Virus record (IMG/VR): IMGVR_UViG_3300027744_000116
Span: 1 to 24,554 of that record
Source of the DNA: a virus
Taxonomy: Duplodnaviria > Caudoviricetes
DNA length: 24,554 bases
Strand: one strand, 5' to 3'
How positions within the stretch are numbered: position 1 is the stretch's first letter; each line of letters begins with the position of its first letter. A program made the translations under genes and the position numbers. The notes beneath the pieces are model-generated. The model searched no databases. It saw nothing but the letters and a program-made list of their open reading frames with translations, and was not told the origin of the DNA. Below, piece by piece: positions 2 to 21,619 of the stretch.

Positions 2-1471
2 ATGGCATTACAGCCAGAATGTGACACGGCTATTGAAGACATTGTGAATGAAGCATTAGTCTTTGATGACAGCGACTATCCAGTTCAAGTTATTTTAGAT
101 AAACTAGAACAGCCAGAATCCATTAAAAATAAAATTCGTGATGAGTTCTATTATGTGATGAAACTATTAGACTTCAACAATCAAGGATATGATATCTTTC
201 GTAGATGGTACGTAGATGGTAGACTATACTATCACATGATGATTGACGATAAGAATCCTAGACAAGGATTAAAAGAAATTCGCTACATCGACCCACGTAA
301 AATTCGCAAAGTTCGTGAAGCTAAAAAAGCACAAAAGAATCTTGCAACAGGAACTGTAAATCCAACAACAAGTTATAATGAATACTTTATCTACTCTGAT
401 AAAGGCTTTGCAAATGATGGTAATCAAGGAATTAAGATTGCACCAGACGCAATCTCGTATACACACTCTGGACTAACAGACAAAGATGGTAAAGTTATCA
501 TCTCACACCTACACAAAGCAATCAAGCCACTCAATCAATTACGTATGCTGGAAGATGCAACAGTCATCTATCGTATTGCAAGGGCACCAGAACGTAGAAT
601 CTTTTACATTGACGTAGGTAACTTGCCTAAGATGAAGGCTGAACAGTACTTGCGTGAAATCATGCAGAAGTATAAAAACAAACTAGTGTATGATGCAAAC
701 ACTGGTGAGATTCGTGACGATAGACGATATCAAACAATGCTTGAAGACTTTTGGTTGCCACGTAGAGAAGGTGGTAAAGGTACAGAGATTACTACACTAC
801 AAGGTGGGCAGAATCTTGGTGAGATTGAAGACGTATTGTATTTCCAAAAGAAAATGTTTAAGTCCTTGAACGTTCCAGTTTCACGTTTAGAGTCTGATAG
901 TGGATTCTCTTTAGGACGTGCCTCTGAAATTACTAGAGATGAATTAAAGTTTGGTAAATTTATTGCTAGACTACGTTTGAGATTTTCACATTTGTTTGAT
1001 AAGATGCTTGAAACACAACTTCTTCTTAAAGGTGTTTGCACCCGTAAAGAATGGGAACAAATGAGAGAAGAAATCAGTTATGATTTCCAATCTGATGCAC
1101 ACTTCACAGAATTAAAGAACGTTGAGATTATGAAAGAACGTTTAGGTATTCTTTCTGACATTGACAATTACGTTGGCAAGTATTTTTCTATTGGATATGT
1201 TCGCAAGAATATTCTTCAGCAATCCGAAGATGACATTAAAGAGATTGATGAACAAATGGAAGAAGAAGCCGCAGAGGCCGAAGACGATCCAGTAGAAGAG
1301 CCTATTCCACCACCTTCACCTCCACCACAACAACTTGTTGTGAGTGTGAAGAAAGAAGAAACCGAGACTAGAATAATCGATGATGCAGATCAAAGAGAAT
1401 TAGCAAAATCGATGACAGCATTTTTTGGCACATTAGTTGAAGAGGCTAAAGTTGACAAAGAAGGAAATTAA
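2..1471 (+). CDS. gp20: T4-like portal vertex protein gp20 (5'-truncated at window edge)
   Basis: Hallmark gp20 motifs RRWYVDGR, YIDPRKI, HLHKAIKPLNQLRMLED, RAPERRIFYIDVGNLPK, MLEDFWLPRREGGKGTEITTL, GRASEITRDELKF; acidic/Pro-rich C-terminal tail. Confidence 0.98.
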   Translation: MALQPECDTAIEDIVNEALVFDDSDYPVQVILDKLEQPESIKNKIRDEFYYVMKLLDFNNQGYDIFRRWYVDGRLYYHMMIDDKNPRQGLKEIRYIDPRKIRKVREAKKAQKNLATGTVNPTTSYNEYFIYSDKGFANDGNQGIKIAPDAISYTHSGLTDKDGKVIISHLHKAIKPLNQLRMLEDATVIYRIARAPERRIFYIDVGNLPKMKAEQYLREIMQKYKNKLVYDANTGEIRDDRRYQTMLEDFWLPRREGGKGTEITTLQGGQNLGEIEDVLYFQKKMFKSLNVPVSRLESDSGFSLGRASEITRDELKFGKFIARLRLRFSHLFDKMLETQLLLKGVCTRKEWEQMREEISYDFQSDAHFTELKNVEIMKERLGILSDIDNYVGKYFSIGYVRKNILQQSEDDIKEIDEQMEEEAAEAEDDPVEEPIPPPSPPPQQLVVSVKKEETETRIIDDADQRELAKSMTAFFGTLVEEAKVDKEGN

Positions 1472-2825
1472 TACAACCCTAAACGATGCTGTTGCAATTG
1501 CAACCTCTGTTGCATATACTAAAAAAGAAGTACAGAAACTAAAAACAGAATTAGTATCTTTTTTAGAAGAAAAAACAAAACAGCCAATCGTTGAGTATAT
1601 ACAAGGACCCGCAGGCACACAAGGCTTGCGAGGTTCTATTGGTGCTACTGGCGCACAAGGCGAACGTGGACCACAAGGTTTAGCTGGTGAAACAGGACCA
1701 CAAGGCGACAAAGGCCAAAGCGGTCCACAAGGTAATATGGGGCTTGAAGGTCCACGTGGGCTTAAAGGAGACAAAGGCGATAAAGGCGAACAGGGCGAAG
1801 TTGGTCCTCAAGGCGAACAAGGAATACAAGGCGTTGCTGGTGAACGTGGTCCGGAAGGACTGAAAGGCGATAGGGGCGCAGATGGACAAAATGGTTTGGA
1901 CGGAAAAGATGGAGAAGCAGGCAGAATTGGTTCCGTTGGACCAATTGGCGCCCAAGGTATTCAAGGTGAGCGAGGTGCCAAAGGCGACAGAGGTGAGCGA
2001 GGCCAGAACGGCCGAGATGGAACACAAGGACCAGCAGGACCAACAGGTGAAATTGGACCGCAAGGCATTCAAGGTATTCCAGGTAAGGATGGTAAAGAAC
2101 CAGACTTAAAAGCTATTGAACAATCTGTCAATCAGTTTAAAGAAGTCTTACAAAAAGATGTAACTCAGTATAAAGCAAAAGTAAATACAATTTTATCGGA
2201 TCGTGGCGGTGGTGGCGGAGGTGGTGGTGGTGAAGTTAATCTACGCAGACTTGATGATGTTGATATCACTAATCTTACTGATGGATATGTTTTAGCATTT
2301 AATGAATCTACACAGAAATTTGAATTTGTAGCACAATCTGGTGGCGGTGGTGGTACAATAGATACATTTGCAAGAACAAGAGCAAACACGGCTTTTACCC
2401 AAGCAAACTCTGCTTTTGCACAAGCTAACACAGCAACAACATTAGCACAAGCCGCTTACAATCAAGCCAATACAGGTGGTGGTGCATCCGAATCTTTGAA
2501 TGTTATTTTCACTAATAGTAACGCAACTTCATATAAAATGGTTGCGTTAAATTCAAATGGCGAAACAATTCTTGCTTCTGCATTACAATTGACACAAGTT
2601 GATAAAATTCTTGGTGTTTTAAATAACTCTGGACAAACAATTACGTTTGGATCTATCACAAATGCATCTTGGACTTGGACTCCCGAACAGTCGTTATATC
2701 TTGGAGATAATGGCAATATAGTAACAACTTCTACTATCGATGGTGCGACATTTTCTTTAAAAATTGGATACGCAATTTCATCAACAAAAGCATTTATAAA
2801 AATCGGCACTCCGGTTGTTTTATAA
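1452..2825 (+). CDS. Collagen-like fibre protein (coiled coil - 55 Gly-X-Y - Gly linkers - ANxA heptads - C-terminal beta domain)
   Basis: Uninterrupted Gly-X-Y at 1605-2099; GGGGGGGGEVNLRRLDDVD motif; likely start is TTG 1452 with GAGG at 1442-1445 (track start 1437 is in the same frame). Confidence 0.85.
   Translation: MTKKEINTTLNDAVAIATSVAYTKKEVQKLKTELVSFLEEKTKQPIVEYIQGPAGTQGLRGSIGATGAQGERGPQGLAGETGPQGDKGQSGPQGNMGLEGPRGLKGDKGDKGEQGEVGPQGEQGIQGVAGERGPEGLKGDRGADGQNGLDGKDGEAGRIGSVGPIGAQGIQGERGAKGDRGERGQNGRDGTQGPAGPTGEIGPQGIQGIPGKDGKEPDLKAIEQSVNQFKEVLQKDVTQYKAKVNTILSDRGGGGGGGGGEVNLRRLDDVDITNLTDGYVLAFNESTQKFEFVAQSGGGGGTIDTFARTRANTAFTQANSAFAQANTATTLAQAAYNQANTGGGASESLNVIFTNSNATSYKMVALNSNGETILASALQLTQVDKILGVLNNSGQTITFGSITNASWTWTPEQSLYLGDNGNIVTTSTIDGATFSLKIGYAISSTKAFIKIGTPVVL
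1605..2099 (+). repeat. Collagen triple-helix repeat, 55 Gly-X-Y triplets
   Basis: Counted from GPA GTQ GLR to GIP GKD GKE with no interruption. Confidence 0.95.
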
Positions 2826-2828
2826 ATA
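2821..2828 (+). promoter_or_regulatory. T4-type late promoter TATAAATA
   Basis: Exact gp55 consensus overlapping the collagen stop codon, upstream of ORF 2860. Confidence 0.8.
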
Positions 2829-2859
2829 GGTAAATCATAAAATTTAATAGGGGAAACAT

Positions 2860-3261
2860 ATGGCAAACGCACTTTATTCTAAAGCAAAAGAAGCATTTTT
2901 AAATGCTTCAATAAACATGGTAGCAAATACCGTTACTATAGCACTTGTTGACACTGGTGTCTATACTTATAGCGCATCACATCAATATCGAAATGAGGTG
3001 TCAAATAGTGCTATAATATCAAGTACATCACTATCAAGTAAAACCGTTACCAATGGAGTTTTTGATGCCGATGATGCAACATTCACATCCGTTACTGGTG
3101 CAAATTGTGAAGCATTATTAATATTTCAAGATACGGGAGTACAATCTACTTCTAGGTTAATTGCATACATTGATAGCGCAACTGGTTTGCCAATTCTGCC
3201 TAATGGCGGTGATATCACAGTAGTCTTCTCTAGCGGATCAAGTAAAATTTTTGCTCTTTAA
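2860..3261 (+). CDS. Virion structural protein resembling siphovirus/actinophage minor tail proteins
   Basis: MANALYSKAKEAFL...GVFDADDATFTSVTG...LIAYIDSATGLPILPNGGDITVVFSSGSSKIFAL matches, from memory, a widespread ~130-aa phage family; RBS AGGGGA; late promoter upstream. Confidence 0.65.
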   Translation: MANALYSKAKEAFLNASINMVANTVTIALVDTGVYTYSASHQYRNEVSNSAIISSTSLSSKTVTNGVFDADDATFTSVTGANCEALLIFQDTGVQSTSRLIAYIDSATGLPILPNGGDITVVFSSGSSKIFAL

Positions 3262-3281
3262 TTTTTGATATAAATTAAATC

Positions 3282-4493
3282 ATGGCCAATACTACGTTTG
3301 ATAGTACAAATAAAACATTTGATAATCAAACTTTAACTTTCGGACTAGAACTACTTTCTCAAAAGATTGTTTTGGGCGTTGCATTATCGGAATTTGCTAA
3401 TACGCTTTTATCGGCACAACAAGATACATCGATAATACAATTCATAGACACCAACGATAAAGCAATTGACTCTACGGTAGAGATTCCGAACACGCATCAT
3501 GTATACATAAATGTTAGACAGAATTTATATCTTTCTGATAACTTATTTTGTGTTGAAAATGTAGCAATTCAAGCATATCAGTCAAATACTATTCAACAAG
3601 GTATTGATAGTCTTGACTCCTCTGTTGCAAGTGGACTTTCTTTTGGAGTAGGCAATTTATTTGTTCAGATACATCCAAATTCAGGTGAATCTACACTTGC
3701 ATTTGGTTCATCACAATTAAATTCAATAATTTATGCACAGTCTATAGAGTCTACTGTGTCATATGGTGAAGATGCATTAAAATTATATGTTACTCCTACT
3801 ACATTATCATCTACATTATTATTTGGCGATGCACAAATAAACAGTAAAATATATTCTAATTCTGTTTCATCTACACTTGAATTTGGTTCATCACAATTAA
3901 ATTCAATAATTTATGCAGAAAGTGCAGAATCAACAGTTTCATTTGGTTCTGTTGAAAACTTAAACTTCACAGTAAATGTAAATTCCGTAAATTCTGAATT
4001 AAGTTTTGGCACCCTTTCTGTTGTGCCATTGGTGGCGCCACAGTCAGTTACGACACAGAATAGTTTTGGAACGCCTAAATTAAATTCTATATTATATGCA
4101 AATTCATATGAATCTGCTATCGCATTTGGTGTTCCTCAGATCAATATGGAAATTGATGATGTTCCGTTTCCTTCAATTACTTCTACTGTAGTAATACCGA
4201 ATCCAAGCGTTAGATTTAATATTAATCCGCTAAGTATAGCAACGACTGCCAATTTTGGTACTGCTACGTTTATTGACAACATTCACAGAATGCTTGTTTT
4301 TAAAGATGACAACATTTCTAAGATTGGCGATAATGATGCTGGCGTTGTAGCTGGAGGAATAAGAATTAATCCATCAAGTGCTGTCGCAAACACCGCTATT
4401 GCAGGAGATTTCACGGTACCAAATAATGCGGCCGGTTTTGTGTCGATAAATATTGCAGGTAAAGATTACCTAATGCCGTTTTTCAATGCCTAA
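3282..4493 (+). CDS. Ser/Thr-rich structural protein with ~10 tandem 20-aa repeats (S-x-x-S-T-x-x-F-G)
   Basis: Repeats such as IYAQSIESTVSYGEDALKLY and IYSNSVSSTLEFGSSQLNSI; C-terminal fibre-like tip (AAGFVSINIAGKDYLMPFFNA). Confidence 0.65.
   Translation: MANTTFDSTNKTFDNQTLTFGLELLSQKIVLGVALSEFANTLLSAQQDTSIIQFIDTNDKAIDSTVEIPNTHHVYINVRQNLYLSDNLFCVENVAIQAYQSNTIQQGIDSLDSSVASGLSFGVGNLFVQIHPNSGESTLAFGSSQLNSIIYAQSIESTVSYGEDALKLYVTPTTLSSTLLFGDAQINSKIYSNSVSSTLEFGSSQLNSIIYAESAESTVSFGSVENLNFTVNVNSVNSELSFGTLSVVPLVAPQSVTTQNSFGTPKLNSILYANSYESAIAFGVPQINMEIDDVPFPSITSTVVIPNPSVRFNINPLSIATTANFGTATFIDNIHRMLVFKDDNISKIGDNDAGVVAGGIRINPSSAVANTAIAGDFTVPNNAAGFVSINIAGKDYLMPFFNA
3689..3917 (+). repeat. 49-bp direct repeat (3689-3737 and 3869-3917), 1 mismatch, 180-bp spacing
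   Basis: atctacacttg(c/a)atttggttcatcacaattaaattcaataatttatgca occurs twice. Confidence 0.9.
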
Positions 4494-4505
4494 AAAAATG
4501 GTAAT

Positions 4506-4513
4506 TATAAATA
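4506..4513 (+). promoter_or_regulatory. T4-type late promoter TATAAATA
   Basis: Exact consensus, intergenic, ahead of AGGAG RBS and ORF 4540. Confidence 0.85.
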
Positions 4514-4539
4514 ATACAGAAACCTAATAGGAGTATACT

Positions 4540-4773
4540 ATGGAAAATGTACAAACAGCAATTCAACATGCGTATGATGCAAAACCTTCAGAATTTAAAA
4601 GCGCAATTCTTGACGCATTAAATGATAAAATTGCGGATCATGTATCTGCAAGAAAAATGGAATTAGCTGGTTCAATTTTTAGAGATGATGATGACGAAGA
4701 ACAACAACAATCAAATGATTTAGAAACCGAGTTTCAATCAAGTTCAGAAGGAAATGTAGATGAAGACCTTTAA
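4540..4773 (+). CDS. Prohead core protein, gp67-like
   Basis: Small helical protein with acidic tail between portal and protease; RBS AGGAG; synteny with T4 gp67. Confidence 0.55.
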   Translation: MENVQTAIQHAYDAKPSEFKSAILDALNDKIADHVSARKMELAGSIFRDDDDEEQQQSNDLETEFQSSSEGNVDEDL

Positions 4774-5230
4774 ATCTTTCATTCAGTCGGATGAAATCAA
4801 CAAGCAAGCATTTGATGAAAGCGATGCATACGACAAAGACGTTAAGGCTAGTCCGAAACCGCATGACAAAGAAGCCGCAGCCCAACGTGCAAAGCTAGCC
4901 GCACTAGCCGCTAGAAAGAAAATGATGACGAACAAAATGAGTGAAGCTGAAAGTCATCAGTCTAAGACTACAATGAAGCACATTGATAAACCAAATGCCG
5001 CCGAAAAAGAAGCGGCCAAACGTATCAAACCCGGTATTAAAGGTATTAGAGATAGATTTGCAATGCTTCAAGCCGCAAAAAATCGTGGTGCTTTAAAGAA
5101 CGAAGATGTTGATTTACTTTCTAATCTTTACGATCAGTTAGACGAAAGCAATCAAGAAATCTTTTTGGCACAGTTAGAAGAAGATGTTGAAGTACTTTTA
5201 GCATTTGCAAAAACTATAGCGGAAGAATAA
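4760..5230 (+). CDS. Putative head internal/core protein
   Basis: N-terminus MKTFKSFIQSDE resembles T4 capsid-targeting sequences; charged helical protein in the head module. Confidence 0.5.
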   Translation: MKTFKSFIQSDEINKQAFDESDAYDKDVKASPKPHDKEAAAQRAKLAALAARKKMMTNKMSEAESHQSKTTMKHIDKPNAAEKEAAKRIKPGIKGIRDRFAMLQAAKNRGALKNEDVDLLSNLYDQLDESNQEIFLAQLEEDVEVLLAFAKTIAEE

Positions 5231-5231
5231 A

Positions 5232-5696
5232 ATGGCAGATACCGTAACATCACAAACGCTAAAAGATAGCGCATCAACATGGGCAGTTAAGTTAACTAAT
5301 GTGTCGGATGGCACTGGCGAAACAAACGTTGTTAAAGTTTCCGCAAACACATTAATTGCATCCACTGGTGATGCAAGTTCACAAAGACTTAGCATTAATA
5401 AAATTGCATGGTCTGTTGCATCAGGAACAAGCGCAACAATTTCTCCAAGAGTTACATTACTCTGGAGAGGAACATCAAACACTACAATTGTTACGTTAAC
5501 AGGTTCTGGTTTTTGGGATCTAACAACTGCTGGTCAATGCCCACTCACAAACAATGCTGGCGCTGGCGCCAATGGCGACATTCTATTGTCTACCGCTGGG
5601 TTTACTGCATCGGCTGCATATACAGTTATTATTGAAGGTAAGAAGACTGCTGGATATTCTAGCAGAGAAACTACTGATGATGGGGTAAGCCCATAA
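5232..5696 (+). CDS. Conserved hypothetical virion protein of aquatic T4-like phages
   Basis: MADTVTSQTL...KLTNVSDGTGE...NNAGAGANGDILLST family, recognised from memory; lies in the late head cluster. Confidence 0.6.
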   Translation: MADTVTSQTLKDSASTWAVKLTNVSDGTGETNVVKVSANTLIASTGDASSQRLSINKIAWSVASGTSATISPRVTLLWRGTSNTTIVTLTGSGFWDLTTAGQCPLTNNAGAGANGDILLSTAGFTASAAYTVIIEGKKTAGYSSRETTDDGVSP

Positions 5697-15637: not shown

Positions 15638-16130
15638 ATTGGTACCTGAATCTGCAACAGTATTGCATGAAGAATGTTTGGAGTTTGATTTTGCAAATCC
15701 TCCAATTGATCCAAAAGAACTTGCACAATCATTACACGACATTATGATTAAGAGTGATGGTTTAGGACTATCAGCCAATCAAGTTGGATTACCATATAAA
15801 GTTTTTGTAATGAGAACTGGCGATGAACCATTTGCAGTATTCAATCCTAAAATTGTAGATATCTCAGATAGAGAACTAGTAATGAAAGAAGGTTGCTTGA
15901 GTTTTCCATTGCTTTATTTGAATGTTAAACGTTCAGATGGCGTTCGTATTCGTTATCAGAAAGAAGACGGAAGCACTACAACCGAAAAGTTTATTGGCAT
16001 GACAGCAAGAATTGCGTTACATGAGTTTGACCACATGATTGGAAAAGTGTATACTCAGAAGGCGTCAACATTTGAAACACAACGTGCATTGCGTAAACGT
16101 ATGATTTTAAAACGTAAGGTAAAAAAATGA
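15627..16130 (+). CDS. def: Peptide deformylase
   Basis: All three PDF motifs: GLGLSANQVG, EGCLS, HEFDHMIG; RBS GAGGAG. Confidence 0.96.
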   Translation: MNLELVPESATVLHEECLEFDFANPPIDPKELAQSLHDIMIKSDGLGLSANQVGLPYKVFVMRTGDEPFAVFNPKIVDISDRELVMKEGCLSFPLLYLNVKRSDGVRIRYQKEDGSTTTEKFIGMTARIALHEFDHMIGKVYTQKASTFETQRALRKRMILKRKVKK

Positions 16131-17239
16131 AACCTTGGCAACATGGATATGACATAGACTATCTTAAGGGTCTAGAAGCACAATATGCAGACTACAATGC
16201 ATATACGTTATCTCCTTTTGCAAAGTATAAGAAAAATAACATTGCAGAGTCTTTGAAAAAAGGTAATCTTATTTTTAGTGAATTTGGTCTTGAACCTTCA
16301 ATGTTTGAAGTTACAAATAGTAAAGTTGCATCAGATATTACAATGCATGGAGACACAGTTATTGCAACAAAAGTAAAAGGTGATGTTTCAATTGGAAAAC
16401 TTTCGGGCAACATCAATACGATTAAGCATCAAATTTCTTTATTGTCAGGAAACAATTTTTGGTTAACTGTATGGGCAGAAAACAAAGCACATTGTGACTT
16501 GGCTGAAGAATTGGGTTTCTGCTATGTTGGTCCTAAGATTACAACATATGGAGAAGTACATGCAATTTACTTTAAGAGTAACAGTCCTATTCCACGTTCG
16601 TTTCCTAAAGTAGAATCAACAGAATATCTAAGCATCAAAAAGATTGGCGCAATCACATCAGAATTTATTGAATCTGTTTCTGCTAAGTTAGCAACGTTAC
16701 CTGCATTCACAAATCATTATAGTAACTACAACAAAGACAAAGCATGGTCTGCATTGTCACTACGTGGTTATCGTCCAGAATCAGATTTCATTACAAAGCC
16801 CTCAGAGATGAGTGATGACTGGAAAGAAAAAAACAAAGACGTAAAATTTGAATTGCAAGACACACCACTCTATGATATGTTTCCTGAGGTGCGTGAGTTG
16901 CTGAGTAAATATAGAGAAGTGCATCGTGTTCGTTTCATGCAATTGAAACCTGGTGGTGGAGAACTTGAACGGCATACCGATCAGGTTGATAAAGACTCTG
17001 GTGGCTCTAAAGGCAAACTTGCAAGACTACACATACCAATCATTACTAATCCAAACATGATTTTTACTGTATGGGATCCAAAAGGCAATCCACAAAAGGT
17101 ACATATGGATGTTGGAGACTTGTGGTTTTTAGATACACGTAAGCCACATCAAGCTATCAACAACGGAACAGATAATAGAATTCACTTAGTCATAGATGCA
17201 ATCTCGGAAGGAGACCTGTATGAGTCGCTTGTATCCTGA
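16127..17239 (+). CDS. Fusion: N-terminal GNAT-like domain plus C-terminal Asp/Asn beta-hydroxylase-like 2OG-Fe(II) dioxygenase
   Basis: C-terminal RVRFMQLKPGG..HTD...RLHIPIITNP...H(QAINNG)..RIHLVID gives HxD...H plus the 2OG-binding R; N-terminal WLTVWAENKAHCDLAEELGF resembles GNAT motif B (weaker call). Confidence 0.75.
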   Translation: MKPWQHGYDIDYLKGLEAQYADYNAYTLSPFAKYKKNNIAESLKKGNLIFSEFGLEPSMFEVTNSKVASDITMHGDTVIATKVKGDVSIGKLSGNINTIKHQISLLSGNNFWLTVWAENKAHCDLAEELGFCYVGPKITTYGEVHAIYFKSNSPIPRSFPKVESTEYLSIKKIGAITSEFIESVSAKLATLPAFTNHYSNYNKDKAWSALSLRGYRPESDFITKPSEMSDDWKEKNKDVKFELQDTPLYDMFPEVRELLSKYREVHRVRFMQLKPGGGELERHTDQVDKDSGGSKGKLARLHIPIITNPNMIFTVWDPKGNPQKVHMDVGDLWFLDTRKPHQAINNGTDNRIHLVIDAISEGDLYESLVS

Positions 17240-17984
17240 AGAAATTTCTGATATAATAGAAGGATGGAAAGATCCAAACCCTGCACCAATAGTTGAAATG
17301 CACCATGGCTTTCATGTTGTGCGTGATGACTTGTTAGAGTATGGAAGTAAAAGTAGATTCATTGACTATCTTGTGAAGACTACTAAATGTGATGAGTGGG
17401 TCTTTGGTGGTGCAAACAAAGTTGGTTGGGGTCCTATATCTTTAACGTATGTGTGTAATCTTTATGGAAAAAAAGCAACGTTCTTCATGGCTAAACGAAA
17501 AGAACCAACATGGCATCAGCAAAGAGTGCTTGACCTTGGCGGCACTATTCATTGGGTTGACAATGGTATGCTTACTGTGACAAAAGCAAGAGCAAGACGT
17601 TATCAAGAAGAAGATGCAAAGCGCAGACAATGCTTGCCTTTAGGATTAGAACATCCATCCGTGCTCGCATCGATTGTTAAAGTCGCAAGAGATTTAGAAA
17701 TCAAACCAACAGAGATTTGGACTGTTGCATCAAGCGGAACATTGAATCGTGGATTGCAATTAGCATTTCCTAATGTGCCTGCGTATGCAGTAGAGATTGG
17801 GCATAAGATGAGTGACTACGAAAAAGGCCGTGCTGTGACTATGCGTTCACCATATAAGTATGACCAAGTAGTAGAAGAAAGTCAAGCGCCACCTTATCCA
17901 TCTGAAAAATACTACGATGCTAAACTTTGGCAGTTTGTAGTGACTAGCGGGAAACCAGGCGCACTAATCTGGAATGTAGCATAA
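17220..17984 (+). CDS. PLP-dependent enzyme, PALP / fold-type II (ACC deaminase / D-cysteine desulfhydrase-like)
   Basis: VVRDDLLEYGSKSR (Schiff-base Lys), WTVASSGTL phosphate loop, YDAK, LIWNVA; ATG 17220 with GGAG RBS. Confidence 0.8.
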   Translation: MSRLYPEEISDIIEGWKDPNPAPIVEMHHGFHVVRDDLLEYGSKSRFIDYLVKTTKCDEWVFGGANKVGWGPISLTYVCNLYGKKATFFMAKRKEPTWHQQRVLDLGGTIHWVDNGMLTVTKARARRYQEEDAKRRQCLPLGLEHPSVLASIVKVARDLEIKPTEIWTVASSGTLNRGLQLAFPNVPAYAVEIGHKMSDYEKGRAVTMRSPYKYDQVVEESQAPPYPSEKYYDAKLWQFVVTSGKPGALIWNVA

Positions 17985-18006
17985 TTAATATTCAAAGGAG
18001 TCGAAC

Positions 18007-18258
18007 ATGAGCAACGAAGAAGACAAATTTAAAAAATCTAAACGAATCCTTAAAGATGAAAATGCAATACGAAAGCAAATGAAAATTGCAAAAGCATATA
18101 ATATACCAGTTGAGTCTCCTCATCAATTGGCTAAGCATCATGTATTAGATTGTGGAAATCCTAATTGTGTGATGTGTGCAAATCCTAGAAAAGTATGGAA
18201 AGAAAAAACGATTCAAGAAAAACGTTTTGAACAAACTGAAAAATTTGATAATGATTAA
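18007..18258 (+). CDS. Small basic protein with His/Cys cluster (possible Zn binder)
   Basis: HHVLDCGNPNCVMCANPRK; AAGGAG RBS. Confidence 0.65.
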   Translation: MSNEEDKFKKSKRILKDENAIRKQMKIAKAYNIPVESPHQLAKHHVLDCGNPNCVMCANPRKVWKEKTIQEKRFEQTEKFDND

Positions 18259-18688
18259 AGAGAAATATCTAAGTGCATATATGCAAACTGCAAAAATATT
18301 TGCAGAATTGAGTAGCGCAAAACGTAAGCATGTTGGTGCGGTTGTTGTTAAAGATGATAGAATCATTTCAATCGGTTACAATGGTATGCCAAGCGGATGG
18401 GATAATGATTGTGAAGTTATTGCACATACAGATTTTACTGGCACGATAGTAACAAAAACAAAACCAGAAGTACTCCATGCAGAGTCTAACGCAATTGCAA
18501 AACTTGCTAAGTCTACCGAGAGTGGTGATGGTGCAAGTATGTTTATCACTTGCGCTCCATGCATGGACTGTGCTAAAATGATATTTCAAAGTGGAATAAA
18601 AGAAGTCTTCTATGGTGAAGATTATCGTGATGATGCAGGAATCAGTTTCCTAAATAAATGCGGAATAACAGTAAAACAGATAACATGA
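18251..18688 (+). CDS. cd: dCMP deaminase
   Basis: VGAVVVKD.RIISIGYNG, HAESNAI, PCMDC zinc motif; likely start ATG 18251. Confidence 0.93.
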   Translation: MIKEKYLSAYMQTAKIFAELSSAKRKHVGAVVVKDDRIISIGYNGMPSGWDNDCEVIAHTDFTGTIVTKTKPEVLHAESNAIAKLAKSTESGDGASMFITCAPCMDCAKMIFQSGIKEVFYGEDYRDDAGISFLNKCGITVKQIT

Positions 18689-20259
18689 CAAAACATTTTT
18701 ATGAACGTAACGATTGGTTATTGAACCACGAAACAAACAAGACATTTGAAGAAGTACAATGGATGACTGAAGACGAATTTCGTCAATGGTTCATTGATCT
18801 ACGCAAAGCAGTTGTACACTCATGGGATACTATGGGTCAACCACCAAGAGTTGGTTGGGATGAAGGCGCAATCAAAAAACAATTCAAAGAGATGTATGGA
18901 TTCTCTGTGCATGAATTTGAACACGTTGATGAATTGACTGGTGAGAAAGATGTAATCAGAAACACTAGCGTAGTTGGTAATGCCGCTAATCAATGGTTTC
19001 CGACCATGATGAAGACACGCATTAACTATACAAAGAATGACGATGGGCTTTCAATCTATGACCACTTTCTCAAAGATGAATTGCTTGAGAAGACATTGAA
19101 GTATTCTAAACGACACTTCAAGCGTGATTCATTTTATGCATATTCAAATACAGTTAAAGTCAATGAGATTATTAACGTTGGTTCTTACAATGTAAAGTTT
19201 AAGAACGGCAATGATTTTGTTCGTTGGTTTGAAGAGAACAATATTCGTCAATATGGTTATGACTATTGGATAGAGAGTCGTGATGATGACGAAGAGTATA
19301 CTGGTTACAATGAACAACTTAAAGGTGTGAAGTATCTTGAAGTGACGCAAGAAATTCTAGAGACAATTCCAACTAAGTCTACAATGAACATAAAGTCACA
19401 CGACCAGAAGAAGTATCGTCTGCGTATGTACAAGTATGGGCAAAAGATTTTTCCTGTTGGCTTGAAAGCATTTCGTGTATCGTGGTGCCAATATGCTGTT
19501 AACTTTCCACCATTGACTGCGAAACTTCTCTATGAAAAATTTACTAGACACGTTAAGAACCAAGATAAAATTGTTGTTTACGATCCCTCTTCTGGTTGGG
19601 GTGGGCGTATCTTGGGTGCTATGGCTTCTCGCACTTCTCTTCCTTTACACTATGTGGGTACTGATCCTAATACCGATCACAGCATTAGTAGCGATAGCGG
19701 CAGTCCTAGTACTAAATATGCCGACTTGGCTGAGTTCTATAACTCCGCAAAGAACGAAGGTGTTTTGTTCGAACAGTCCAACACTTACGAAATTTTTCAA
19801 CTTGGTTCTGAAGTTGTCCGAGATGATAGTTCGTTCCAAAAGTACAAGGGTGAATTAGACATGGTGTTCACTAGTCCTCCTTACTTTGCTAAGGAAGCGT
19901 ATAGTGAAGACCCAACGCAATCGTATAAAAAGTTTACTGGCTATGATGCATGGCGTGAAGGCTTCTTACGCCCAACATTAGAAACTGCTGTTGAGTATTT
20001 GCGTAATGACAGATACTTACTTTGGAATATTGCTGATGCTAAGTTTGGTGCTGACATGTTGCCACTTGAAAAAGATAGCAAAGACATTTTGGAATCACTC
20101 GGTATGCAATTCAAAGGTGTAGTTAAAATGGCACTAGCACAAATGCCAGGTGGTAATCGTATTGATCCTGATACTGGTTTGCCAAAAGCAAAGAATTTTT
20201 GCAAAGTAAATGGAATGTGGCTGAAGTATGAACCGATTTTTGTTTTTTACAAACCATGA
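18685..20259 (+). CDS. Large DNA amino-methyltransferase (N4-C/N6-A type)
   Basis: Motif I YDPSSGWGGR, YVGTDPN, motif IV FTSPPYF, EAYS, YEPIFVF; ~270-aa N-terminal extension; ATGA overlap with dCMP deaminase. Confidence 0.85.
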   Translation: MTKHFYERNDWLLNHETNKTFEEVQWMTEDEFRQWFIDLRKAVVHSWDTMGQPPRVGWDEGAIKKQFKEMYGFSVHEFEHVDELTGEKDVIRNTSVVGNAANQWFPTMMKTRINYTKNDDGLSIYDHFLKDELLEKTLKYSKRHFKRDSFYAYSNTVKVNEIINVGSYNVKFKNGNDFVRWFEENNIRQYGYDYWIESRDDDEEYTGYNEQLKGVKYLEVTQEILETIPTKSTMNIKSHDQKKYRLRMYKYGQKIFPVGLKAFRVSWCQYAVNFPPLTAKLLYEKFTRHVKNQDKIVVYDPSSGWGGRILGAMASRTSLPLHYVGTDPNTDHSISSDSGSPSTKYADLAEFYNSAKNEGVLFEQSNTYEIFQLGSEVVRDDSSFQKYKGELDMVFTSPPYFAKEAYSEDPTQSYKKFTGYDAWREGFLRPTLETAVEYLRNDRYLLWNIADAKFGADMLPLEKDSKDILESLGMQFKGVVKMALAQMPGGNRIDPDTGLPKAKNFCKVNGMWLKYEPIFVFYKP

Positions 20260-20894
20260 AACATACTATCTCACATTTACCTAATGTAGGAATACTTAAT
20301 GCAAAATTTACTGACGATGAATTAAAACCAATGTTGGATGAAATTAATGACATTAAAAGAAAAAACTTCTCAGCAAAAAAATTCAATTCAAATTTAGCTG
20401 GAAATTTAGAAAAAGAATTTGAACTTATTGAATGCCATTCTTATATAAATTTACTATTACTACCTTTAACAAAAACATACGATAAACAATTTAAAATTGC
20501 TAATGAGATTGGTGGACCAATTTTTAAGAAACCAATCCCGGTAACCCTTAAACATCTATGGGTAAATTTTCAGAAGAAAAATGATTTCAATCCTATGCAT
20601 CGTCATGGTGGTGTTTTCAGTTTTGTTATTTGGATTGATATTCCATATGCAATCGATGATGAAAAATCGCATCCAACATCAAGAGAATCCACAGCAAATA
20701 TTCCCGGTCATTTTCAATTTGTATATACTAACATTTTAGGTGAAACGTCAAACTATAATATTCCCGCAGATTATACATTTAAAAATCAAATGGTAATGTT
20801 TCCGGCAAAATTATCGCATAGTGTATATCCATTTAGAACTTCCGATGAATATAGAATTAGTGTATCAGGAAATTTTGGATTTGATATACCATGA
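20256..20894 (+). CDS. 2OG-Fe(II) oxygenase (phage TIGR02466-like)
   Basis: WVNFQKKNDFNPMHRH, SFVIWI, MFPAKLSHSVYPF, RISVSGN. Confidence 0.85.
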   Translation: MKHTISHLPNVGILNAKFTDDELKPMLDEINDIKRKNFSAKKFNSNLAGNLEKEFELIECHSYINLLLLPLTKTYDKQFKIANEIGGPIFKKPIPVTLKHLWVNFQKKNDFNPMHRHGGVFSFVIWIDIPYAIDDEKSHPTSRESTANIPGHFQFVYTNILGETSNYNIPADYTFKNQMVMFPAKLSHSVYPFRTSDEYRISVSGNFGFDIP

Positions 20895-21481
20895 CTACAA
20901 TTAATGATGTGCTGAATCATTACTGGGATACTGTAGGTGTTGAGCAAGATACTTTTAAAATTAGAGGCGACAATCATTTTAGTAAATTGAATGATTATCT
21001 TAATGATAAAATACACGCTAAAGGTATTCCAGAATCATTTATATCATGTGCATACCGCAATCGAAAAAGTTGGGACATGCATTTTCCTGATATTAATGTT
21101 GCAATTGAATATAAAACATTTACTGCAAAAGGTATTTCTGGAAATAAAAATAATCGTATTGAAGAAGCACTAGGGTCATCTATAGACTTAAAAACAAAAC
21201 ATCCACATTATAAATTAGGATTTATTGCAGTATTTGCATTCAGAGAAAATTCAATGTCTGTAGTAAAGGCAAGAGAGATAGTGATTGAGGTGTTTGATAG
21301 AATGGTTGGTGACGGACACTATGATATGTTTTTACCTATTCAAACAATGGGTATTGACAATCACTTTGAATTATCAGAAAAATATTCATTAGACACTTTC
21401 ATAGAGTCTATTAATTATAATATCCAACAAAAAAATGGATCTTTGAGTACGAAGTCTAATCTAAATAATTTTTTTGTTTGA
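20891..21481 (+). CDS. PD-(D/E)xK endonuclease, XhoI/PaeR7I restriction-enzyme-like
   Basis: YRNRKSWD...AIEYK...GNKNNRIEEALGSSIDL...LGF parallels the XhoI-family pattern FRPTKKWD...EFK...GNNFNNRTEEAIG (recalled, not searched). Confidence 0.65.
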   Translation: MTTINDVLNHYWDTVGVEQDTFKIRGDNHFSKLNDYLNDKIHAKGIPESFISCAYRNRKSWDMHFPDINVAIEYKTFTAKGISGNKNNRIEEALGSSIDLKTKHPHYKLGFIAVFAFRENSMSVVKAREIVIEVFDRMVGDGHYDMFLPIQTMGIDNHFELSEKYSLDTFIESINYNIQQKNGSLSTKSNLNNFFV

Positions 21482-21591: not shown

Positions 21592-21619
21592 TTGACATTC
21601 ATTCCTACTGTGCTATACT
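21592..21619 (+). promoter_or_regulatory. Sigma70-type early promoter
   Basis: TTGACA (21592-21597) -16 bp- TATACT (21614-21619) with TGn extended -10. Confidence 0.75.

Follow-up and report, generated by a model that had tools for sequence, protein, structure and literature searches.

The closest described systems to the one considered here are the thymidine hypermodification pathways of phages M6, ViI and PaMx11, whose products are 5-(2-aminoethyl)-2'-deoxyuridine (5-NedU), 5-(2-aminoethoxy)methyl-2'-deoxyuridine (5-NeOmdU) and 5-acetylaminomethyl-2'-deoxyuridine (5-AcNmdU), respectively (PMC8989533). M6 gp52 is a proven decarboxylase of amino-acid-base adducts on DNA that requires a primary amine, with K36 as its probable aldimine lysine (PMC8989533). 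Here we examine a locus in a 24,554-nucleotide stretch of DNA (the window; IMG/VR record IMGVR_UViG_3300027744_000116), a fragment of an uncultured T4-like phage, in which a methyltransferase-fold enzyme, a pyridoxal 5'-phosphate (PLP)-dependent enzyme and a fusion of a GNAT-like domain to an AspH-type oxygenase form a three-gene module for what is probably DNA hypermodification, with a first step that is possibly new. The module resembles the M6, ViI and PaMx11 pathways (PMC8989533) in its homologous PLP enzyme with an aligned aldimine lysine and in its modular tailoring enzymes, which in PaMx11 include a GNAT. It is unlike them in that its complete relatives lack the 5-hydroxymethyl-2'-deoxyuridine (5-hmdU) synthase and the amino-acid:DNA transferase (ADDT) and gave no match to the kinase model, and in that its constant partner is an amino-methyltransferase fold, joined by the AspH-type oxygenase.

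In the synthesis of wybutosine, an aminocarboxypropyl group is transferred by Tyw2, after which Tyw5 acts. The reaction that we propose below resembles this route and the aminocarboxypropyl transfer to tRNA by TapT (PMC12630136) in its chemical logic, with S-adenosylmethionine (SAM) as the aminocarboxypropyl donor and tailoring of the chain afterwards. However, TapT and Tyw2 target RNA. In phages, a DNA methyltransferase fold that carries a larger group as a handle has a precedent in Synechococcus phage S-B43, with its CmoX/CmoA/CmoY system for carboxymethylcytosine (PMC12783734), although CmoX modifies cytosine at C5 and draws on carboxy-SAM, whereas the enzyme of the module has an SPPY motif. 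With the orphan N4-cytosine/N6-adenine methyltransferases and the ParB-methyltransferases found at ParB-terminase loci of phages (PMC4738411), it shares its phage location and a motif I that precedes SPPY/CPPY, but it differs from them in its large N-terminal part and in being fused repeatedly to PLP and oxygenase domains. We found no description of the module or of aminocarboxypropyl-DNA in the literature searched, the main text of PMC8670742 included; the supplements of PMC8989533, PMC13229309 and PMC8670742 may contain loci of this kind, and Iyer et al. 2013 may refer to the association.

Results

The three core genes lie on the + strand and encode the GNAT-like/AspH-type oxygenase fusion (16127-17239, 370 aa), the PLP-dependent enzyme of the PALP fold (17220-17984, 254 aa, dispensable in some lineages) and the class I amino-methyltransferase-fold enzyme (18685-20259, 524 aa with a 250-aa N-terminal part), which would catalyze the first step. 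Related loci were drawn from the best 80 of the 269 viral loci retrieved with the methyltransferase as query, a redundant set; of these, 57 have a full upstream flank and served for counts of upstream genes, and 69 have a downstream flank and served for counts of downstream genes. We found the oxygenase at 52/57 loci, the GNAT-like domain at 53/57 and the PLP enzyme at 33/57, and among the 36 loci below 70% identity the corresponding numbers are 31, 32 and 12. In one complete relative (G003, 100% complete; locus L114) the three core genes are adjacent, and at four loci (L025, L028, L047 and L055) a stand-alone oxygenase is followed by a stand-alone GNAT with an intact coenzyme A (CoA) loop and then by the methyltransferase, with no PLP gene.

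The same partners recur within single polypeptides, whose domains were recognized by matches to profiles built from the window genes. Among 22 longer relatives of the PLP enzyme (41-63% identical), 21 carry a domain homologous to the window methyltransferase, 11 of them as methyltransferase, oxygenase and PLP domains and 10 as methyltransferase and PLP domains; the one without it is fragment-like. The GNAT half was matched at an expectation value (E) below 0.05 in 8/11 of the methyltransferase-oxygenase-PLP fusions. The best 150 of 1,346 PLP representatives included 34 long proteins, of which 13 were flagged by methyltransferase motifs and two more by Pfam. In the PLP tree, the window enzyme nests in a clade of methyltransferase fusions (support 0.98); 12 fusion groups were counted in that tree, but on weak branches, and the count is not used here. 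In Erythrobacter phage ZS04 and Pseudanabaena phage Pam4 a ParB-methyltransferase is interrupted by the PLP domain between its motifs I and IV, and in Microcystis phage Mae-JY30 the PLP enzyme is encoded by the gene adjacent to the methyltransferase; the neighbors of stand-alone distant PLP members are known from three cultured phages. The first-pass annotation, made from the letters of the window alone, had grouped these genes with four others, and for the methyltransferase, the PLP enzyme and the GNAT-like/oxygenase fusion the grouping is borne out by the fusions and by co-occurrence across loci: we consider it very likely that the three constitute one coupled module.

The PLP enzyme matches PALP (E 0.003) and phrog_7093 (E 8.5e-29). 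It shares its 'threonine dehydratase' label with M6 gp52, to which it aligns at 24% over 203 aa (pairwise E 2e-8) with K44 opposite gp52 K36, a lysine conserved in 137/138 relatives; a search of its profile against the sequences of solved structures returned nothing significant. To judge from these alignments the enzyme is a distant homologue of gp52 with its catalytic lysine intact, and the kinship with thymidine hypermodification enzymes suggested at first reading is upheld.

The oxygenase domain of the fusion (16601-17239) matches Asp_Arg_Hydrox (PF05118, E 3.6e-12) and has the features of an AspH-type Fe(II)/2-oxoglutarate (2OG) oxygenase: the HxD...H triad (H282-x-D284, H341) and the 2OG-binding arginine (R351), both invariant in 75/75 homologues, and a cupin fold in the predicted model (predicted local distance difference test score, pLDDT, 92.5). 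The structures nearest to the model are proline hydroxylases, a nucleoside-antibiotic hydroxylase and AspH, with the first AlkB-type enzyme at rank 35, and on this modelled fold the domain is of the amino-acid-hydroxylase type, not of the TET/AlkB type. In mycobacteriophage LilMcDreamy a homologue (hhalign E 1.9e-30) is flanked by an ADDT and a P-loop protein and preceded by ParB and Tet_JBP genes, so that in the window the methyltransferase would take the role of the transferase. As an observation in its own right, genes 1-5 of LilMcDreamy (L083:1-4333, NC_051582), encoding ParB, Tet_JBP, ADDT, GNAT-like/AspH and P-loop proteins, resemble a thymidine hypermodification cluster and are annotated as TGT and terminase small subunit.

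The N-terminal domain of the fusion (residues ~1-158, 16127-16600) has a degenerate CoA-binding loop and is GNAT-like on indirect grounds. It has no direct GNAT match in Pfam, its leads in Atlas stay below 0.9, and no fold match was obtained for it in a Foldseek search with the whole fusion, the list being filled by oxygenases. Its profile, however, matches stand-alone proteins next to related methyltransferases (E 4e-6 to 3e-4), and two of the three stand-alone homologues tested pass the Pfam cut-off for Acetyltransf_1; it is through these sequences that homology to the GNAT fold is suggested.

The methyltransferase matches N6_N4_Mtase (PF01555, E 0.0013) and belongs to a family of 2,115 relatives; its database neighbors are named DNA methylases. 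Motif I (DPSSGWGGR, residues 300-308) and motif IV (TSPPY, 396-400) show little or no variation among 94 homologues and, together with the class I fold of the predicted model (pLDDT 88.6), these are the features of an amino (N4/N6) methyltransferase, namely a class I fold, motif I and (D/N/S)PPY. The best structural match is Trm11 (Z-score 15.1, root-mean-square deviation 3.0, 177 aligned residues), at a lead of less than 2 Z units over unrelated methyltransferases, and TrmN and Trm14 follow. The model gives no clue to the transferred group. No aminocarboxypropyl transferase is among its top 50 fold matches, a list from which such a family may be missing; the N-terminal part had no fold match in the search with the full-length model, and the profile of the enzyme found nothing significant among the sequences of solved structures. 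In PMC5463345, R6L ORF1 is handled as an ordinary methylase and the word 'pyridoxal' is absent. Elsewhere in the family of the 18685-20259 enzyme, a glycosyltransferase-2 domain is fused to the methyltransferase (L139:7380-9044).

Genes for the first steps of known pathways were sought in the window and in its relatives. ADDT was absent from the window and from relatives G002 (98% complete), G003 and G004, in searches in which the M6 and LilMcDreamy controls were positive, and absent also from ZS04, Mae-JY30 and Pam4. A source of 5-hydroxymethyluracil (5-hmU), whether a ThyA-fold hydroxymethylase or Tet_JBP, was found in 0/4 relatives per search with positive controls, and the HMUDK_HMUD1 kinase in 0/3 relatives, with a positive M6 control but with a model that misses the LilMcDreamy P-loop protein. 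ThyX is present in four of five relatives, G003 and G002 included. The absence of classical first-step genes from the window, pointed out in the first-pass annotation, holds for the near-complete relatives G003 and G002 as well, with less certainty for the kinase. A carboxy-SAM route of the CmoX kind was rejected, CmoA being absent from 5/5 genomes in a search with positive controls in E. coli and others.

The remaining genes of the locus are more variable. All seven open reading frames (ORFs) of the run 16127-21481 are open on the + strand, and the first-pass description of their layout and domains was accurate: ATGA overlaps at 16127, 18685, 20256 and 20891, overlaps of 20 nt at 17220 and 8 nt at 18251, and a sole gap of 22 nt (17985-18006). 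The overlap at 16127 is with the peptide deformylase gene, outside the run, and 4-nt overlaps occur elsewhere on the contig (5988/5985 and 13743/13740), so overlaps alone define no system and membership must come from relatives. A seven-gene unit was rejected, the other four genes being variable or incidental at related loci. The 83-aa protein with a Cys/His cluster (18007-18258, phrog_4499) is a lineage-specific neighbor, present at 21/57 loci and at none of the 36 below 70% identity. The dCMP deaminase (18251-18688, 145 aa; PF00383, E 6e-22; phrog_174) is present at 29/57 loci and at 8/36 of the distant ones, and lies ~6 kb downstream in L027, L033, L035 and L037; its proposed role in feeding 5-hmdU was rejected on these distant counts and on relatives that have ThyX and no ThyA-fold enzyme, and it is better regarded as an ordinary nucleotide-pool gene than as a member of the system.

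Upstream of the run lie genes for portal, prohead, gp23, UvsY/UvsW, late sigma, gp47/gp46 and peptide deformylase. Downstream of it, a sigma-70-type promoter match on the + strand (21592-21619; 11/12 with an extended -10, a consensus match only) probably opens the next transcription unit; total matches in promoter and terminator scans of the window were at chance level. Between the portal and prohead protease genes, positions 1437-5696 hold a gene for a collagen-repeat protein and several unannotated ORFs. Bacterial genomes yielded 14 loci, too few for any pattern; in one metagenome-assembled genome (L136:3435-11026) a methyltransferase-PLP fusion lies directly downstream of an Mrr-nuclease/helicase gene, possibly in a defence island.

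Discussion

We tentatively propose, from the relationships of the encoded proteins, that the three-gene module modifies the phage's own DNA by aminocarboxypropyl transfer, decarboxylation and hydroxylation. The methyltransferase fold would move the 3-amino-3-carboxypropyl arm of SAM to an exocyclic amine of a base, decarboxylation of the adduct by the PLP enzyme would leave an aminopropyl base, and the side chain would then be hydroxylated by the oxygenase, while acylation of the amine by the GNAT-like domain would be confined to lineages in which the CoA loop is retained. Modification would follow replication and would presumably protect against host nucleases; the steps may be optional by lineage, and lineages without the PLP gene would stop at a carboxylated or hydroxylated form. 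Aminocarboxypropyl transfer is favored because decarboxylation of the gp52 type depends on a free alpha-amino acid carried by the DNA and the oxygenase resembles an amino-acid hydroxylase, and because the SAM-binding enzyme is the sole constant partner able to load a group and the SAM arm supplies the amine, the carboxyl and the methylenes; an aminocarboxypropyl group would offer a handle for decarboxylation, and a methyl group none. That the product is larger than a methyl group seems to us reasonably likely; that aminocarboxypropyl is what is transferred onto the base is a more tentative suggestion.

Several observations weigh against this proposal. The methyltransferase has the motifs of an ordinary amino-methyltransferase, and its top folds are tRNA N2-methylguanine (m2G) methyltransferases. 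The PLP gene is absent at 24/57 loci and from the whole of genomes G002 and G001, and at 4/57 loci the methyltransferase stands alone without partners. The similarity of the PLP enzyme to gp52 is only 24%, so its reaction type may differ, and the PLP family has other partners: there are at least nine fusions to YunG (PF24585), found on 9/36 scanned PLP relatives (P0265, P0267, P0268, P0278, P0283, P0289, P0297, P0339 and P0354), one of which also carries the oxygenase, and YunG may be an alternative first-step or tailoring enzyme. The loci and fusions are redundant, so that the counts are not independent. Finally, the acetyl-CoA pyrophosphate loop of GNATs has the form Q/R-x-x-G-x-G/A, and this loop (QGxG) is present in 3/3 aligned stand-alone homologues and in 0/75 fused ones; the acetyltransferase activity first ascribed to the fused protein is accordingly not supported, and the domain in the window may be a binding domain.

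The alternative that best survives is plain methylation to N4-methylcytosine, N6-methyladenine or m2G, with the partners oxidizing or acylating the methyl group or acting elsewhere. It is in keeping with the canonical motifs I and IV, with the DNA methylases among the database neighbors and with the loci just mentioned at which the methyltransferase occurs alone or without a PLP gene, but it leaves the PLP enzyme without a substrate even though this is fused to or inserted into the methyltransferase, and the oxygenase is of the amino-acid type, not of the TET/AlkB type; we think it unlikely. It is somewhat less probable again that the PLP enzyme works ahead of the methyltransferase, with free SAM as its substrate (decarboxylation being one example), and that the methyltransferase fold then passes on an aminopropyl or similar group. 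This could end in the identical aminopropyl base. A PLP domain inserted next to the SAM site would be well placed for channelling, the fold matches include a branched-chain polyamine synthase (Z-score 12.6, not above other methyltransferases), and G001, which lacks the PLP gene, carries a gene of the AdoMet decarboxylase family. On the other hand, the assayed homologues work on DNA-bound adducts, and in G002 neither the PLP gene nor AdoMet_dc is present. A real module with tRNA or another RNA, a protein or a small molecule as its target is a shade more doubtful still: Trm11, TrmN and Trm14 are the top folds, some fusions bear a TrmN6 label (JGI) and the oxygenase is similar to hydroxylases of free amino acids, but the narrow lead of Trm11 argues little for RNA, and the PLP enzyme and the oxygenase both have homologues in DNA hypermodification clusters.

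The first-pass annotation had seen in the seven genes a modification-restriction system, with the nuclease that ends the run as the cognate partner, and this we consider very improbable. The XhoI-like PD-(D/E)xK nuclease (20891-21481, 196 aa; XhoI, PF04555, E 3.3e-5, below the cut-off) is present at 1/69 loci and the second 2OG-Fe(II) oxygenase (20256-20894, 212 aa; 2OG-FeII_Oxy_5, E 5.5e-10; phrog_81) at 3/69. Their GC contents are 0.30 and 0.29 (0.17 at third codon positions for the oxygenase), as against 0.37-0.41 for the core genes (0.39, and 0.35 at third positions, for the methyltransferase), and both are low-GC passengers. Close relatives whose methyltransferase is 94-98% identical have the downstream slot empty or filled by other oxygenases or nuclease-like ORFs. 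A scan with the nuclease itself found only two other loci, with the gene directly after the methyltransferase in both, and unrelated nuclease-like ORFs, recognized by motifs only and with no Pfam nuclease match, occupy the same slot at L010:3478-4212, L021:9593-10291 and L023:8811-9398; it is possible that the nuclease loosely prefers this position, yet it is no fixed partner. With no fixed cognate nuclease beside the modifying enzyme, neither the restriction half of that description nor the membership of these two genes is supported. Least credible is that these are tailoring genes of the classical 5-hmdU thymidine pathway whose first steps fall outside the 24.5-kb fragment, as the PLP and oxygenase homologues in such clusters might suggest, for the complete G003 has the three genes adjacent, with ThyX and with no ADDT, kinase, ThyA-fold enzyme or Tet_JBP, the kinase test being weak.

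Returning to aminocarboxypropyl transfer, its consequences would reach beyond this phage. The hypermodifications of phage DNA in the cited literature begin at the pyrimidine C5, and an amino-methyltransferase fold that loads an amino-acid arm would be a new entry point and a new base chemistry. The module is directly testable, as the methyltransferase-PLP pair occurs in three cultured phages and single-gene fusions exist. Should the proposal hold, amines could be placed on DNA as handles in a sequence-directed manner, modification-dependent defence would have a new target, and many 'orphan methylases' would prove to be misannotated. It is quite possible, though we put it forward with reserve, that a widespread family now labelled DNA methylases is made up of DNA aminocarboxypropyl transferases. 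In phages and some bacteria these would open a 5-hmU-independent route that starts from an exocyclic amine (of C, A or G), with tailoring by PLP enzymes, oxygenases and GNATs into aminopropyl, hydroxylated and acylated bases.

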